Below are positions 3,339 to 36,619 of a stretch of 64,000 nt of DNA, in pieces. Each line of letters starts with the position of its first letter. Position 1 is the first letter of the stretch. A program made the position numbers and the translations under genes. Source of the DNA: an uncultured Alistipes sp. (GTDB taxonomy: Bacteria; Bacteroidota; Bacteroidia; Bacteroidales; Rikenellaceae); assembly GCA_900768045.1 (NCBI GenBank), contig CAAGBL010000095.1, positions 7,936 to 71,935 on the forward strand, in the 5' to 3' direction. The notes under the pieces are model-generated. The model worked only from the letters and a program-made list of their open reading frames with translations, did not search any database and had not been told where the DNA came from.

Positions 3339-4904
3339 TGCTACTTGAGCGCTGACCGACTCCGCCCCATCACGCACATAAGCTGTGCAGATAAAGCGAC
3401 CAGAGAGCGCAGCCAAATCCTCGTTGGTCAAAGTAACCGAGTTACTACACCCAGCGTGGTCAGTGTTCCATATTGTATCCGAGGCGACATCACCCGTCTC
3501 GCGAGTCCACGACCAATCTCCAACAAGGATATCGGCTGTGATATCCGTAACGCCTCGTTTTACCTTTGCAGTAAGGGTGGTCGATAGTTGCCCCACAAGG
3601 AAGGTCTCCCCATCGGTACTCTCAATGTCAAGCGTGAGAGTTGTATCACCAGCGACAAGTAGCCAATCGGTAGAGTCGTAGCGAGGCTCGGCAGTGGTAC
3701 CCTCAACAATGCAGCGGTACTTGCACGAGTTGTGATATACTTCGTCTTGGTATTGAGCGTTGCACTGATAAGGGTTTGTAACAGCATCAATGGCGCTCCA
3801 CAAACCTCGGTCTCGAACTGTGCGAATAACCTCATTATCCTTGTCTATCTGGAAGAAGTTTTTGGCTATGACATTATCCAGATAAATCGAAGCTCGCCCC
3901 GATACAGGGTTGTTCTCTGGAAGCAGAGCTTCGGGAACACTACCAATAACGACCTTATAGTGTTTCGGCTCGATGATATATTGGTCCACACCCGAAAGCA
4001 ACGATATACGCTGCTCCGAAGATGAGAAGTATTGGCTCTGCTGTCTCTCCTCGTTGGTAAAGTTACCATAACGAGCGATGTTCATATAGGCAGTAGGCGC
4101 ACAGTTCACGCCTCCGGGCACAGCTTCATCATCACCCAGCACTACACGAATCGTCTTGGCTGTCTGATTGACCGACACGACACGAAAGTACGAGGTTATG
4201 AAGCCTCCGTTCTTGTTGTAGTGTCCCTTGCATATATCATCAACCTGCAACTCGATGTTGTCGCCGTCCTCGATATCCATCGTAAGCACAAACGCAGTAT
4301 CGCTACCAGCATCAGGTTCAACCTTGGCGATGGTACCGCCCTCGGTATTCCACATCTCGCCACCTGTAACCTGCACCTTGTTGTAAATAAGCGTTGGCAC
4401 CTTCAAGAACGAGCGCAGCGTCAGCGAGGTCATCTCTGCGTTACCCTCTTTGTCAATAGCTGCACCTGTTCCCGTTTCAATGCCCGATATAAAATTCGGG
4501 GTACGAAACTCCGAAGCAATAACCTTCAAGAACTGTACGATGTCGCCTGTGCGGAGTGCTTGGTCAAGGTAGTCAGCAAACTGCTGACCGTCCCATTTAT
4601 CAGCATTATCTGCTTCTTTGGCGTGGCTAGCCTCATCCGCAAATCCAGCCTTAACTTTCTCTTCCTTGGAGTCATCAGCGCCATCAGGTTTATACTTCAA
4701 ATAGAGATAACCTTCGGCATCCATAGATTGGGCATCGAGCGTGGTCTTGTTGGCGTGGGTATGACCATCGCCATCACCAATAACAGTGACTGCACTGCTA
4801 CCCCCTCCACTTTCGCTACCATTAACACCTCGCCCACGAAGGCGTTTGCTTCGTGGGAGTGCCTCATAGGTGCGTGTAACAACGCTAAATTGTTTCAGTG
4901 CCAT
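3333..4904 (-). CDS. Phage minor tail protein
   Basis: 523 aa downstream of the tape measure module; GHTHANK motif; C-terminal WSWTRETGD...FICTA Ig-like module. Confidence 0.7.
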   Translation of the reverse strand: MALKQFSVVTRTYEALPRSKRLRGRGVNGSESGGGSSAVTVIGDGDGHTHANKTTLDAQSMDAEGYLYLKYKPDGADDSKEEKVKAGFADEASHAKEADNADKWDGQQFADYLDQALRTGDIVQFLKVIASEFRTPNFISGIETGTGAAIDKEGNAEMTSLTLRSFLKVPTLIYNKVQVTGGEMWNTEGGTIAKVEPDAGSDTAFVLTMDIEDGDNIELQVDDICKGHYNKNGGFITSYFRVVSVNQTAKTIRVVLGDDEAVPGGVNCAPTAYMNIARYGNFTNEERQQSQYFSSSEQRISLLSGVDQYIIEPKHYKVVIGSVPEALLPENNPVSGRASIYLDNVIAKNFFQIDKDNEVIRTVRDRGLWSAIDAVTNPYQCNAQYQDEVYHNSCKYRCIVEGTTAEPRYDSTDWLLVAGDTTLTLDIESTDGETFLVGQLSTTLTAKVKRGVTDITADILVGDWSWTRETGDVASDTIWNTDHAGCSNSVTLTNEDLAALSGRFICTAYVRDGAESVSAQVAF

Positions 4905-10835: not shown

Positions 10836-11153
10836 TTAGTCGTTTTTTGAGTTCTCGCCATTATCCGCTGCGACCTTCTCCATCACAGCAGCACTGATAT
10901 CGCCAAGAAGCTGGATATAGTCGCCGAACTCCAATCGGTCAGCAAAGTCCTCAAATGAGTAGTTAAACTCCTCCTTGTTGCGGCGGCAGTGAGCCTTCAC
11001 CACATGGTAGATATATTTCAGGTTATTCTCGGTATCCTCGGGAGTAATCGCCGAAGCCTCCATACCCGTTTCGTTCTTGAAAGAGAGCATTGCTCCCATA
11101 GTTTCGATATAAGGGTACTTCTTACCCTCAAAGTTCAAAAATATAGCTTTCAT
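10836..11153 (-). CDS. Tail assembly chaperone (gpG-like)
   Basis: 105 aa between tail tube and tape measure; ends TCA AAA AAC GAC TAA. Confidence 0.8.
   Translation of the reverse strand: MKAIFLNFEGKKYPYIETMGAMLSFKNETGMEASAITPEDTENNLKYIYHVVKAHCRRNKEEFNYSFEDFADRLEFGDYIQLLGDISAAVMEKVAADNGENSKND
10842..10848 (-). other. -1 ribosomal frameshift slippery heptamer A_AAA_AAC
   Basis: X_XXY_YYZ in the gpG frame; the -1 frame reads RLNPVSIDKLLGIAVG into the downstream ORF. Confidence 0.85.
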
Positions 11154-18129: not shown

Positions 18130-19503
18130 ATGGCAAAGAACAAGAAGCACAATAAGCGTATCACCTCTGGTGGTAGTGTTGGGCGTACCCCTACGCAAAC
18201 AATCGTACTTCAGCCCACCCGCCGAGGTGGACTCGATGTGTCCGAGTATATGACAGCAATACGCAAGGCGGAGTTAATCGACTACCCCCAGCGTAAGAAG
18301 CTCATCGACCTCTACAAAGATGTCAAAACAGACTCCCACCTATTTGCGGTACTTCGCAAGCAGAAGGCAGCTATACTTTCAACCCCGATTCAGTTCCTGC
18401 GTGATGGTGAGGTTGATGAGCAGATGCAGGAGCATATTACATCGCCTTGGTTCAACCACTTCATTGAGGACCTTATTGACCACGAGTGGGAAGGTGTCGG
18501 AGGCTCGCTGTTCCAATTCTACAAAGACGAGAAGGGCTGGGTTAAGTACGACCTTATTCCGAGGGAACATGTGGACCCAATCAACCGCACGATCCTCCGT
18601 AACCCGACAGACCTCCGAGGCGAGAGCTGGGAGGAGTTCTCCGACTTGTTGTATGTCGGCGACCCCAGACAAATCGGCGACCTTGCGGTCTGCGCCTTCT
18701 GGGTAATCCTCAAACGCAACAATGTGTCTGATTGGGCCGAGCTCGCCGAGATATTCGGGCGACCTATCCGAGAGGGTACATACGATGCGTGGGACGAGAA
18801 GGCTCGAGAAAAATTGATTGAGGATATCTACAATATGGGCGGTGCTGGTATCATTATCCACCCTGACGGAACGAAAATAAACCTACTCCAAACAGGCAAT
18901 GTGTCCGGAGCTGGGGATATGTATAGCGGACTTGCCACATATTGCAACAACGAGATGAGTAAGGCGGTAAATGGTAATACCTTGACCACCGAGGCGGGCG
19001 ACAAAGGCACGCAAGCCCTCGGCACTGTACAACAGGAGGGCGAGGTCGATATCACCTTCTTCATTAAGCGACAGATCCTCGACATTCTCAACTATGAGGT
19101 GTGCGACATCTTTGCTGCTCTCGGCATCAACACCAAGGGTGGTAAATTCGCCTTTGTGCCACCAAAGAAGAAGGACCCTGCACAACAGGTTACTATCGTT
19201 TGCCGACTGAAAAATGAGGCAGGATTACCCATTGCCGATGACTACCTCTATGAGGAGTTCGGTATTCCGAAGCCCGATGACTACGACCAAATCAAGGAGC
19301 AAGCACAGGCAACAGCAGCAGCCATCAAAGAGGGCAAAAAAGAGGATAAAACAGAGGACCCTGACGCTGATGGAGACGAGAGTACCGAGCCCAAGAGCAA
19401 AAAAACAACCTCTAAGAAAGACGAAGACCACAAATTCATAGATCGTCTTCGCAGTTTTTTTGGAGGAGCCCCCGACAGCGCGGGGGCGGATTTAGATTGG
19501 TAG
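18130..19503 (+). CDS. Portal protein (Mu gp29/DUF935-like)
   Basis: DSHLFAVLRKQK, W..LAEIFGRP, CNNEMSKAVNGNTLTT, YLYEEFGIP motifs. Confidence 0.9.
   Translation: MAKNKKHNKRITSGGSVGRTPTQTIVLQPTRRGGLDVSEYMTAIRKAELIDYPQRKKLIDLYKDVKTDSHLFAVLRKQKAAILSTPIQFLRDGEVDEQMQEHITSPWFNHFIEDLIDHEWEGVGGSLFQFYKDEKGWVKYDLIPREHVDPINRTILRNPTDLRGESWEEFSDLLYVGDPRQIGDLAVCAFWVILKRNNVSDWAELAEIFGRPIREGTYDAWDEKAREKLIEDIYNMGGAGIIIHPDGTKINLLQTGNVSGAGDMYSGLATYCNNEMSKAVNGNTLTTEAGDKGTQALGTVQQEGEVDITFFIKRQILDILNYEVCDIFAALGINTKGGKFAFVPPKKKDPAQQVTIVCRLKNEAGLPIADDYLYEEFGIPKPDDYDQIKEQAQATAAAIKEGKKEDKTEDPDADGDESTEPKSKKTTSKKDEDHKFIDRLRSFFGGAPDSAGADLDW
19455..19487 (+). other. Predicted -1 frameshift signal joining portal to MuF
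   Basis: T_TTT_TTT (19455-19461), 6-nt spacer, hairpin GCCCCCG-ACAGCG-CGGGGGC (19468-19487); the -1 frame is open into MuF. Confidence 0.7.
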
Positions 19504-20909
19504 TCGATGAGTTGTACCGGGATGCTGCCGACAACGAGGGGGCTCGAAGTAGTTTCACCTTCGACTCCTCAATCATAGAGAAGGCTTTACGCAACATTCA
19601 GTCGAAGCGTATCAACACACGCACGACTATCGATGCGGGGCTATTCTCGGAGGTGCAGCGCATTGTAAGCAACGCTATTGATATCGGCTATAATGCTCCA
19701 GCTGGCGGTAGCAGCTTCGCCCAAGAACTGAAAAACAATGCCGAGGTGTGGTCAGCGTTCAAGGTTCACCGTATGGGCAGGGATATCGCTGCTCGTATGT
19801 TAGACGAAGATGGCAACCTCAAATCGTTTGAACAGTTCAAAGCCGACACAAAGGACATCGTGGATCATCAGGTAGGGCGTTGGCTACGCACCGAATTTGA
19901 TACCGCTGTAAAGCGTGCCCATCGTGCCGCCGAGATGCGTCAATTTATGGATGAGGCTGATGTGTTCCCGAATATCGAGTGGCTGCCATCGACAGCAGTA
20001 AACCCTCGTGAGTCGCACATGCCATTCTACCACCGCATCTGGCCTATTGATGATCCATTTTGGGAGAAGCACAAACCGGGCGATGAGTGGGGCTGTCAGT
20101 GTGATTGGAGAGCAACAGACGAGGAGCCTACCGACAACACAGGCATCGGTGAGGAGAGTATCAAGCCATCAGCGGGATTGGGTGGCAACCCTGCCAGAAC
20201 AGGGCAGATATTCTCCAACGACCACCCATATTTCCCAAGCGATTGCGACCACTGTGCATTCAAGAGTGTGCAACTACGACTGTTTACCAACAAGCAGAAA
20301 AACTGCTATCAGTGCGCCAACATCATCAAGGCAATCAAGAGCGCAAAGTTGGCTCCCGTTATTGAGGAGTATGAGCGTCTGCGAGCTGATGAGAACTACA
20401 CCGATGTCAAGATTGACCGCAAGAGTGGTGGCTTGAAGGCAACTCATATCGGGCACAATATCCATAGTGAGCCAAATGAAGAGCGATTCTTCGGAGGAAA
20501 GTACTCTTCCACCGATTTGGAGTTTGAATGCCAAGAACGACTATTTAAGATGGGACATAAGGCTATACTGTGCGATGAATCCAAGGAGTATCAAGGCAAG
20601 AAATTGGCGGCTCTTGATATGGAGTTAGACGGTGTTATGATTGATATTAAGTCTATCACAGGTAACGGTTGGTACTCTCACGCATTGAGAGTTAAAAACA
20701 ATCAATTGCGCCGATACAACAATCGTCCAGATAATCCAGTCCCAGCAAGCCGAGTATGCTTATATTTCCACGAAGCAGAGTTGTTTGATGATATCAAGAT
20801 GCGAAAATCCATTTACTACTTCAAACAACATTTGGAGGGGACCTGTTACATCAAGCATATTATTTGTGTTATCAACGGAAGAGACGGCATATTGGAATAT
20901 GATGTATAA
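19497..20909 (+). CDS. MuF minor head protein with C-terminal PD-(D/E)xK (CdiA-C-like) nuclease domain
   Basis: WLRTEFDTA, PRESH, PIDDPFW..H.PGDEWGCQC (MuF); CxxC..CxxC linker; E...LDMELDGVMIDIKS toxin-like tail; only a TTG start. Confidence 0.8.
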   Translation: MVVDELYRDAADNEGARSSFTFDSSIIEKALRNIQSKRINTRTTIDAGLFSEVQRIVSNAIDIGYNAPAGGSSFAQELKNNAEVWSAFKVHRMGRDIAARMLDEDGNLKSFEQFKADTKDIVDHQVGRWLRTEFDTAVKRAHRAAEMRQFMDEADVFPNIEWLPSTAVNPRESHMPFYHRIWPIDDPFWEKHKPGDEWGCQCDWRATDEEPTDNTGIGEESIKPSAGLGGNPARTGQIFSNDHPYFPSDCDHCAFKSVQLRLFTNKQKNCYQCANIIKAIKSAKLAPVIEEYERLRADENYTDVKIDRKSGGLKATHIGHNIHSEPNEERFFGGKYSSTDLEFECQERLFKMGHKAILCDESKEYQGKKLAALDMELDGVMIDIKSITGNGWYSHALRVKNNQLRRYNNRPDNPVPASRVCLYFHEAELFDDIKMRKSIYYFKQHLEGTCYIKHIICVINGRDGILEYDV

Positions 20910-20985
20910 AGACAATCCTCCGCCCGAAAGCGGAGGATTTTGAAGCCAGTTTCCACCTATTTGCATAGAGTTAACCGGTTAAACC
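20908..20985 (-). ncRNA. Putative ~75-nt structured small RNA convergent on the MuF-toxin gene
   Basis: Promoter GTTG-N20-TATATTTG (21021-20990); stem CCGGTT/AACTGG enclosing a CTAT-GCAA-ATAG GNRA hairpin; terminator at 20914-20939. Confidence 0.5.
20914..20939. terminator. Intrinsic terminator, probably bidirectional
   Basis: AATCCTCCGC-CCGAAA-GCGGAGGATT perfect 10-bp stem with T-rich tails on both strands. Confidence 0.75.
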
Positions 20986-33899: not shown

Positions 33900-34796
33900 T
33901 TATCTTAGTTTGTCGTATATGCGTGAGGCGTATAGAACGTCGTGAAGGCCGAGGCCTATGTTATATGACAATATGCGCTCGGAGTCATTGGCTCTGCCCG
34001 TAACATCGCCCTTTAGGACCTCCTCAAGCTGATGAAACTCCCTAAACTCAGAGAAGTATTTGAAGCCCTTTACGTGGTCTGTGTCGTCGGCAAATACTTT
34101 GTCAAAGGTGGTGTCGCAATTTTGAAAGCCTCGGGTGTGTACAGGTACCACCAATACTCCTGGTTTGAACAACGACTCATCTTCCACAAGCAGACCGCTT
34201 GCATCTGTTATGCACGACACAACGACGTCTGCACCCTTGACCAACTCGGTGGTGGTGTCGACGATTGTAAACGAGGCATTTTTATAGTGGCCATACTCCT
34301 CGATAATCCTCTCGGCTTGATCCTTATATCTAAATAGACGAATATTTAGATGCTCATCAGCGCAGCTATTTAGCAGACATGTGAGCGTAGCTCGGGCTGT
34401 GCTGCCAAGGCCGATAAAGGCATACTCTGAGGCTTGGGATTGGCGCAGTGTCTTAATGGCAAGTGTTGCCACAGCACCTGTGCGCATGGCTGTAATCCAG
34501 TCGCAGTCGACAATCGCCAGCAACTCGCCCGACCGAGAGTCGAAGAGCATCATGTCGCTCTTAAGGGCTGGAACTCGGCCAACAATTCTCGAGACTACCT
34601 TAGCACCGAATCGGCGATACTCGCTTGGAAGTAGACATGGCATGGTTGTAAAGAAGTCGTTGCCTGTGGGGTGTACCGACATCTTTGCGGGTAGCTGACA
34701 CTCGCTCTTTAGAATAAAAGCATCACGCACCCACTCCACACACTGCTCAGGAGAAAGGTTGAGGTTGACAATATCCTCGTTGGTTATATGCTTCAT
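33900..34796 (-). CDS. Ornithine cyclodeaminase/mu-crystallin family protein
   Basis: ITAMRTGA, IGLGSTA, GLGLHD motifs. Confidence 0.88.
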   Translation of the reverse strand: MKHITNEDIVNLNLSPEQCVEWVRDAFILKSECQLPAKMSVHPTGNDFFTTMPCLLPSEYRRFGAKVVSRIVGRVPALKSDMMLFDSRSGELLAIVDCDWITAMRTGAVATLAIKTLRQSQASEYAFIGLGSTARATLTCLLNSCADEHLNIRLFRYKDQAERIIEEYGHYKNASFTIVDTTTELVKGADVVVSCITDASGLLVEDESLFKPGVLVVPVHTRGFQNCDTTFDKVFADDTDHVKGFKYFSEFREFHQLEEVLKGDVTGRANDSERILSYNIGLGLHDVLYASRIYDKLR

Positions 34797-34801
34797 GCTA
34801 T

Positions 34802-36619
34802 TTATATGTATAGTTTTAGCGCCTCGACAAGTTTGTGGTTATCCTCTCTGTTGCGAACGGCAAGGCGTATATAGTTGCTATGGCTAAATGCCGACTTGCC
34901 CGAGCAATCCTTGATAAATATCTCGTGGTCGGCAAGTAGGCGTATGGCAAGCTCCTTTGAAGTAAACCTATCTGTTGTAAGCTCGCAGAGGAAGTAGTTA
35001 GCCTGCGAGGGTATTACTCGTAGATATGGCACCTGCTGCAACTCCTCGAAGAAGAGTTTGCGCTCCTCACGAAATAGCTCGCATGCTCTGAGATAGTCTT
35101 TGTGATACTTCTCATAAATTTGCATGTAGAACTCGCCAAAGGAGTTGATATTCCATATTGCAACCTCCCTCTTTAGGCGGGCAATAGTCTCGGTATCGCC
35201 ACTGGCCAAGACACCAAGGCGTAGGCCTGGCACTCCATACGACTTAGATATGCTCTTAACAACGTAGAGGTGCTCATTCTCTGTTAGAACATCGTTCTTG
35301 AGGAGAGATATTTCACCCTCTGTATCTACAAAGTCTACAAACGACTCGTCGACAATGAAGCGCATGCCATGCTGCTTTGTCCACTCGATAAGTCGCATAA
35401 GGTCGTTGTAGGGGATATAGTTGCCCGAAGGGTTGTCAGGGTTTATAAGTAGTAGGGTGTCAATATCCTTGCCCGCAAAGAATGCCATGATGTCGTTGGC
35501 ATCATACTGCATGCTTGCGTTTGTGGGTAGGTACGACACGATATTCTCCTTGGCGCTTCTATTGGGGTACTCCTCAAAGGTAGGGTAGATAACACCTATT
35601 TTGTTGGTATGCTTCTCGATAAATGCCTTGATGAGCTCCGCAGCACCATTGCCCACAACAATATACTCCTGCTTCACTGCAAAATATTTGCCCGCAAGAA
35701 GGCTGTTTATGCGCATGCCCGAGGGGTACTCTCTAAGCAGAGTGCTAAAGCTTGCCATCAGCTCGTCGACCATCTGCTGTGGAGGGAAGTAGGAGTTTAC
35801 CAAGTAGCAGAAGTCAATGAGATGGGGGTAGCGCCAGTAGCCGCCAAAGCGTGATGATATGAATTTGTAGCGCTCCTCATCGCTCGATGCAAAGATGCAT
35901 GATGCGATATCAAGATCCTGAATATCGTCTATCTCGTACCACTTCTCGCCATTGAGTGGCAGGGCTCTAAGTGGCGACTCATCGAGCAGAGTGATAACCT
36001 TAAGAACCTGCTCGTAGTACTCGTTGTTACCCAAGGCGTGACAGTAGGCCTCGAGGAATGGAACGTAGTGTGTTGCTGAGAAGTCTTTGCTAAATTTATA
36101 GATGTTTACCGTCTTGTAGTAGCGGTTTATGTCGGAGTATCTGAACTTATCCTTTGTCAAGAACTCCTCAATCTTGTTCTCCTCGTCGATGGTTACCACA
36201 GTGCCGTCCATCCAACTCTCGTACTTATCTACAAGTGCGATATTGGGGTATGTGTTCTCGACAATCTTTCTGAGTACGGAGCTCTCAAATATTAGATCCG
36301 ACTCAAGAAGTAGTGAGTCCTCCTCAAGAAGATACTCTCGAGCAAGAAAGAGTGAGTATATGTTGTTTGTCTTGTCGTATATCTTGTTTTCAACATAGAC
36401 TATATCAATATCCTTATACCTATCGCCAATCAGCCTCTTTACATTCTCGGCCTTATAGCCAACGACAAGGACCACTCTCTTAATGCCAACCTCTGCGAGG
36501 TTGTCTAATGTTCTATGTATTAGTCGAGTGCCATTTACTTCAAGCATGCATTTGGTGTTGTCGTCGGTCAGCTCTCCCAACCTACGTCCCATTCCTGCTG
36601 CCAAAATAATTGCTTGCAT
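34802..36619 (-). CDS. LicC-like cytidylyltransferase fused to a class I/II PLP enzyme (HisC/CobD-like)
   Basis: AIILAAGMGRRL..TKC, NNIYSL, WYEIDD; NPDNPSG, DESF, SISKSYGVPGLRLG. Confidence 0.88.
   Translation of the reverse strand: MQAIILAAGMGRRLGELTDDNTKCMLEVNGTRLIHRTLDNLAEVGIKRVVLVVGYKAENVKRLIGDRYKDIDIVYVENKIYDKTNNIYSLFLAREYLLEEDSLLLESDLIFESSVLRKIVENTYPNIALVDKYESWMDGTVVTIDEENKIEEFLTKDKFRYSDINRYYKTVNIYKFSKDFSATHYVPFLEAYCHALGNNEYYEQVLKVITLLDESPLRALPLNGEKWYEIDDIQDLDIASCIFASSDEERYKFISSRFGGYWRYPHLIDFCYLVNSYFPPQQMVDELMASFSTLLREYPSGMRINSLLAGKYFAVKQEYIVVGNGAAELIKAFIEKHTNKIGVIYPTFEEYPNRSAKENIVSYLPTNASMQYDANDIMAFFAGKDIDTLLLINPDNPSGNYIPYNDLMRLIEWTKQHGMRFIVDESFVDFVDTEGEISLLKNDVLTENEHLYVVKSISKSYGVPGLRLGVLASGDTETIARLKREVAIWNINSFGEFYMQIYEKYHKDYLRACELFREERKLFFEELQQVPYLRVIPSQANYFLCELTTDRFTSKELAIRLLADHEIFIKDCSGKSAFSHSNYIRLAVRNREDNHKLVEALKLYI

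Follow-up and report, generated by a model that had tools for sequence, protein, structure and literature searches.

In T7 gp10A/B and similar systems, a structural protein occurs in the virion with a frameshifted C-terminal extension. In phage lambda a slippery heptamer near the end of a morphogenesis open reading frame (ORF) yields a small, fixed proportion of C-terminally extended protein (gpG/gpGT), and in dnaX (tau/gamma) the heptamer is followed by a 3′ stem-loop, both polarities exist and a single-nucleotide change can swap which product needs the shift (passages of PMC5009743, which also mention T7 gene 10 in passing). The MuF genes of the SPP1 gp7, Apk2 and Bxa systems and other MuF polymorphic toxins lie directly after the portal gene and have toxin-like, variable C-termini (passages of PMC5576092, PMC10083569 and PMC11699363); SPP1 gp7 binds the portal at 1–2 copies per capsid (passage of PMC5576092). 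The same domain order is found in one chain in the in-frame portal–MuF fusions of Microbacterium phage clusters EA3, EA5, EA8 and EB (passages of PMC7302621), in the Porphyromonas gingivalis Alisviridae phages annotated with portals of 853 amino acids (aa), and in phrog_35074. Here we describe a Mu-type portal gene in a 64,000-nucleotide (nt) stretch, hereafter the window, of an uncultured Alistipes sp. (GenBank assembly GCA_900768045.1, contig CAAGBL010000095.1, positions 7,936–71,935 of the forward strand; coordinates below are those of the window), the 3′ end of which carries a predicted −1 frameshift signal leading into MuF.

The locus differs from each of these systems. In contrast to lambda gpG/gpGT, the gene is the portal and both predicted products are parts of the virion head, whereas dnaX encodes a polymerase subunit, uses an A_AAA_AAG site and shifts with ∼ 50% efficiency (passages of PMC5009743). 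Systems of the T7 gp10A/B type extend the major capsid or a tail protein, but here the portal would be joined to an entire gene family of its own, MuF with a polymorphic toxin. The known portal–MuF fusions have been described as constitutive, yet the two Porphyromonas phages examined (of 10 records) have a slippery site and hairpin intact at the domain boundary. The papers on SPP1 gp7, Apk2 and Bxa treat MuF as independently made, and the word ‘frameshift’ is absent from their main texts (PMC5576092, PMC10083569, PMC11699363), as it is from PMC12135933, PMC8776804 and PMC7761591. Its single mention in PMC10367356 concerns spanins, the frameshift passage seen in PMC7302621 concerns tail chaperones, and ‘portal’ does not occur in the passages of the frameshift review PMC5009743. 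No description of a portal–MuF frameshift was found in the literature searched, most subscription papers lying outside the search.

The features of the locus are as follows; the lineages are defined below.

18130..19503, + strand: Mu-type portal gene (DUF935/Portal_Mu), 457 aa in the zero frame (PF06074, E 9e-72; phrog_113 portal)
19455..19461, + strand: slippery heptamer T_TTT_TTT, codons Phe443–Phe444 (sequence; T at the synonymous positions in 39/39 lineages)
19462..19467, + strand: 6-nt spacer GGAGGA (stem start peaks at offset 6, 36/39 lineages)
19468..19487, + strand: 7-base-pair (bp) GC hairpin, predicted frameshift stimulator (folds; lineage z; compensatory pair changes)
19461..20909, + strand: −1 frame extension, 482 aa, comprising linker, MuF domain and variable C-terminal domain (open from 19416; 32/32 lineages stop-free over 50 codons)
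19497..19499, + strand: TTG, sole near start of the MuF ORF, not conserved (ORF list, lineage comparison)
19830..20105, + strand: MuF core (Phage_Mu_F, gp7-like; PF04233, E 3e-6, 28.3 bits, just under the cut-off of 29.6; phrog_220, E 5e-22)
20352..20906, + strand: polymorphic C-terminal domain, probably a CdiA_C-like nuclease (home-made CdiA_C-like profile; PF18451 in relatives; PDB 4g6v; Atlas row 4)

Towards its 3′ end the portal gene reads AGT TTT TTT GGA GGA GCC CCC GAC AGC GCG GGG GCG, which places the heptamer in the zero-frame X_XXY_YYZ register in front of an all-GC stem (centroid −16.3 kcal/mol). The −1 frame, which reads WRSPRQRGGGFRLVVDELY, is uninterrupted from 19416 up to its stop codon at 20909; the predicted shifted product has 444 + 482 = 926 aa (∼ 105 kDa), compared with ∼ 51 kDa for the zero-frame portal. 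The TTG of the MuF ORF lies 10 nt 3′ of the hairpin, and the first in-frame ATG is codon 93 (19773). The 30-nt leader of this ORF is structured and 30% A+T, against 63–77% for six neighbouring genes. The original prediction had given these positions (heptamer, spacer, hairpin, −1 open frame and MuF start), all of which we reproduced from the sequence; its picture of a MuF ORF with only a TTG, a GC-rich leader unlike those of its neighbours and a late first ATG is likewise borne out.

As a control for chance, open frames of at least 200 codons in the host assembly were searched for in-frame T_TTT_TTY heptamers; of the 14 present, only the portal site has a strong hairpin (−12 kcal/mol or better) directly 3′. 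A scan with Rfam 15 gave no family above the gathering score (four chance-level matches, best E 0.68). An intrinsic terminator was considered and rejected, the T run being 5′ of the hairpin on the + strand and the A's following the hairpin on the − strand.

We surveyed 195 loci, gathered through similarity searches with portal or MuF; the total includes duplicates as well as the window locus, and L-numbers label the loci. MuF is in the −1 frame relative to the portal in 173 of them, fused in frame in 13 and at +1 in two; no locus is split in frame 0, and seven have no MuF match in the stretch examined. At 70% portal identity these correspond to 37 clusters at −1, 12 fused and two at +1. Neither of the comparative patterns that the original prediction had named as refuting it, variable frame offsets and a conserved independent MuF start, is seen. 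We rejected a sequencing artefact in the window, as the register is identical in the 173 loci. The heptamer T_TTT_TTN is present in 167 of the 173 split −1 loci (165 by script, plus L004 and L125, missed owing to partial portals), three have a heptamer of another type (L160, L169 and L171) and three have none (L005, L050 and L195). L005 is a distant relative (26%) without the signal. L050, a Bacteroides finegoldii copy (3840–4000), was set aside: it carries two indels, one within the hairpin and one close to a later C run, pointing to a sequencing error or a broken gene. A weak search for longer portal homologs found three proteins.

The portal ends in a motif, FF-x-x-AP-GA-LDW, that is near-invariant after a highly variable linker in 120 portal homologs among the matches listed. 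Since such invariance could lie in the protein, the codons were examined for conservation at the RNA level, using 49 lineage representatives (39 with FF in the tail, 10 without) and an expectation derived from each gene's own codon use. The base before FF is T in 39/39 lineages (11.8 expected) and the first Phe codon is TTT in 39/39 (16.8 expected), although these expected counts overstate independence, the lineages sharing ancestry; even so, their portals are 25–70% identical. The second Phe codon is TTC in 31 and TTT in eight of the 39. When lineages were clustered at 50%, both synonymous positions were fixed in 14/14, with 5.5 and 8.5 expected.

The RNA structure and the open frame are conserved alongside the heptamer. 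In 36/39 lineages a stem (≥ 6 bp, ≥ 4 GC pairs) starts 6 nt 3′ of the heptamer, whereas stems starting at offsets 0–3 and 8–13 occur in at most one lineage each; the median folding z of the hairpin is −3.4 across the 39 lineages. Stem pairs switch among C-G, G-C, T-A and A-T in a compensatory manner, the stem is flipped (GGGGGC..GCCCCC) in L061/L072, and different stems are present in L163, L171, L179, L180 and L186. The position of the portal stop varies, lying 1 to 15 codons past the heptamer and often within the spacer or hairpin, which argues that the tail peptide is dispensable and not the conserved element. In the −1 frame none of the 32 split lineages has a stop within 50 codons of the heptamer; in the zero and +1 frames all 32 do. 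Candidate MuF starts within 30 codons of the heptamer are absent altogether (ATG, GTG or TTG) in 13 of the 32, restricted to GTG/TTG in nine and include ATG in 10. Two records of Hankyphage, BK010646 and PV107405 (L016:4383 and L227:1625), annotate MuF starts 24 nt apart, a sign that the start is ambiguous.

The comparison of portal–MuF junctions proposed in the original prediction reveals a heptamer, hairpin and −1 register conserved across portals down to ∼ 25% identity, and its central claim, a programmed −1 frameshift fusing portal to MuF, draws strong comparative support from register, synonymous sites, hairpin and open frame. On these sequence grounds we consider it highly likely that T_TTT_TTT with the hairpin 6 nt on is a programmed −1 ribosomal frameshift signal, by which one mRNA would give both the 457-aa portal and the predicted 926-aa portal–MuF–(nuclease) fusion.

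The signal also persists where portal and MuF are already one gene. The full set of T_TTT_TTY, spacer and hairpin is found at the portal–MuF boundary of 7/13 fused loci, or 6/12 clusters: L013, L017/L164 (P. gingivalis phages 007a and 011a), L175, L176, L177 and L178, to which L204 from the second sample described below is added. The portals of the six signal-bearing fused lineages (at 70%) are 26–63% identical to one another. In these genes it is the −1 frame that stops, after 17–28 codons (21–28 in the six lineages), and a −1 slip would yield a short portal of normal length, with polarity reversed as in dnaX. The fused protein P0121 reads FFAQAP followed by RRGGYRLVVNDLY; split phages encode the latter residues in their −1 frame, a pattern that a frame-flipping indel in the loop would produce. 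A quick portal tree (51 rows) requires 10 changes of the fused label, at least nine of them forced by well-supported branches; recombination is possible.

A second sample was picked on MuF by a PF04233 search of 151 genomes (genus of G694), which gave 36 matches, 30 of them examined as loci. Of these, 22 are split at −1, four are fused, one is at +1 and three are stretches without a portal. In all 22 split −1 loci a heptamer (18 of T type, four A_AAT_TTT) precedes a hairpin at least as stable as −12 kcal/mol. Over the two samples A_AAT_TTT with a strong hairpin is found in L171, L199, L216, L217 and L219, while L160 has A_AAA_AAA and L169 has G_GGA_AAG, which we take to be the heptamer of lambda G/GT. 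Four loci without slippery codons at the junction present the opposite picture. L215 (+1) retains the NF residues of its A_AAT_TTT relatives in non-slippery codons and has an ATG of its own; L161, L162 and L195 have no junction heptamer, and an ATG follows right after the portal stop. The signal and an independent start are therefore alternatives. In L161, L162 and L195 the LY-x-C/H segment that normally opens the MuF part forms the frame-0 end of the portal and is followed by a new ATG, which suggests that these loci arose by fission of a fused ancestor.

We propose that the hairpin would stall the ribosome with two tRNA-Phe on UUU-UUY, and that a minority of ribosomes would re-pair one base back (tandem slippage) and read on into MuF. 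The long subunits would co-assemble with short ones in one portal ring, and MuF with its attached C-terminal domain would be loaded inside the head at few copies, its own start being unneeded; a covalent tether to the portal would give the same placement as the binding of SPP1 gp7. In relatives where an indel 3′ of the heptamer has brought portal and MuF into a shared frame, the signal would have the opposite effect and generate the short portal. More broadly, we lean slightly towards the view that in Mu-like phages of Bacteroidota, the abundant gut Hankyphage and the P. gingivalis Alisviridae included, a reversible recoding switch yields portal rings in which short subunits are mixed with MuF-tailed ones. 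On this view a single indel flips which form needs the shift, such flips have occurred many times, and MuF with its polymorphic toxin enters the head covalently attached to the portal as its carrier.

Several observations weigh against these proposals, as does the shared ancestry that inflates the codon counts. The window hairpin itself reaches a z of only −1.9, with 5/200 dinucleotide shuffles as good, and the hairpins of L160 and L169 are weak. A potential start codon close to the portal stop is present in 19/32 lineages, among them that of the window (TTG) and Hankyphage (ATG), so some free MuF may be made from it. Five of the 13 fused loci (L015, L038, L165, L181 and L192) have neither a T-heptamer nor a strong hairpin, and in L010 the hairpin behind the heptamer is weak; portal rings made up entirely of long subunits may therefore be viable. 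The five loci, together with the fused L202, L205 and L212 of the second sample, have no convincing signal and may be constitutive. The detection of 20 portal peptides and three MuF peptides in Hankyphage particles speaks for the proposals, MuF being made and minor, but the MuF peptides occur alike in the 250–85, 85–30 and 30–10 kDa slices and small proteins smear upward, which makes size non-discriminating (entries of S6 Table of PMC12135933). In the same entries the rows for TerS and the major capsid protein have identical accession and counts, probably a table error. The Hankyphage mass spectrometry data were searched against a standard proteome, and the junction peptide can therefore be sought in existing data.

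MuF could instead be a separate protein, made by translational coupling at an overlapping TTG, CTG or ATG, with the hairpin dampening the start and FF-x-x-AP-GA-LDW being a motif of the portal protein. The near-invariance of this motif in the 120 homologs, the TTG 10 nt after the window hairpin, the ATG within the zone in 10/32 lineages and the annotation of MuF as a separate protein in databases are all compatible with coupling, yet a protein motif cannot reach synonymous positions fixed in 39/39 lineages. Moreover, the portal often ends one codon past FF, and where the residues become NF, GK or KK slipperiness is retained; 13/32 lineages have no start to couple to, and the signal survives inside in-frame fusions, in which a MuF start is superfluous. 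We regard coupling as very unlikely. Still less probable is slippage of RNA polymerase on the T run, which would add a base so that the fusion came from edited transcripts. The T6–T7 homopolymer would give the same two products by this route, which Thermus thermophilus dnaX uses, but the run is mostly six T's followed by C (TTC in 31/39), compared with the runs of nine cited (passages of PMC5009743). The run is also locked to the codon phase with the 3′ hairpin at a fixed 6 nt, and in some lineages it is replaced by A_AAT_TTT or G_GGA_AAG.

A different question is whether a genuine frameshift serves to limit the dose of the C-terminal toxin, as the original prediction suggested. Most MuF ORFs have variable, toxin-like ends (CdiA_C, PBECR2, Gln_amidase, LPD3) and no immunity-like gene follows MuF in the window. 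Against this, a C-terminal extension is missing from 14 of the 155 complete split loci, yet the T-heptamer is retained in 12 of these 14, and in fused lineages the form bearing the PBECR2 nuclease is the zero-frame product. The dose proposal thus finds no support here and we consider it unlikely; the signal is better read as setting the ratio of short to long portal.

The C-terminal domain of the window has no direct match in Pfam or NCBIfam. A home-made profile of 12 CdiA_C-like relatives matches it (E 7e-4), PF18451 is matched by 12 of its 28 aligned relatives, and its family profile matches PDB 4g6v (E 7e-5), which we take to be a CdiA toxin domain; a single-sequence structure model was uninformative (predicted local distance difference test score, pLDDT, 42). 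The domain is likely to be a nuclease, as originally labelled, although the label is carried by the indirect CdiA_C profile links and not by a direct family match. Ends of MuF proteins are polymorphic: CdiA_C, PBECR2, LPD3 or Gln_amidase matches were obtained for 52/107 ends scanned, and the ends are unrelated even between loci with portals > 90% identical. The 181-nt gap between the window MuF and the neck gene (21091) holds only a 38-codon TTG ORF (+ strand) and short overlapping − strand ORFs. A hairpin (20914–20942) lies directly 3′ of the MuF stop. The distant MuF of L005 (L005:5124–6479) has a 452-aa extension, the start of which presumably resembles a Hint/intein domain.

The surrounding prophage encodes a DDE transposase, an AAA ATPase, a Clp prohead protease, terminase, gp36, portal, MuF and neck genes (Pfam). 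Its portal is 44–45% identical to that of Bacteroides Hankyphage p00 and the head gene order is the same; by domain set and gene order the locus is a Hankyphage-like Mu-type (transposable) prophage. The nearest named related locus lies in an Alistipes metagenome-assembled genome. The tail assembly chaperone gene (11153–10836, − strand) has the 3′ end TCA AAA AAC GAC TAA, with a heptamer A_AAA_AAC at 10847–10841 from which the −1 frame enters an ORF (10815–10477) upstream of the tape measure gene, a canonical geometry of the G/GT type. We also considered whether the portal site could be the tail chaperone G/GT frameshift and rejected this, as the site is in the portal gene and the chaperone gene has its own heptamer. 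The prophage probably has two programmed shifts, at the portal and at the chaperone. Beside the repressor end of the prophage (33900–36619, − strand) are host genes that by eye resemble a cyclodeaminase-family protein and a nucleotidyltransferase–aminotransferase fusion.

The conserved signal at the portal is real and very probably functional, and belongs to a site class that we did not find in the literature searched, with the addition of a dnaX-like switch of polarity. Most known programmed frameshifts of tailed phages lie in tail chaperone genes or extend capsid or tail proteins; a portal frameshift would add a new class of site. The MuF genes of Hankyphage and its relatives are probably mis-annotated as stand-alone proteins, and a hidden short portal is predicted in phages annotated as fusions. 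For MuF proteins and their toxins, a portal frameshift offers a concrete answer to how they enter virions at low copy.

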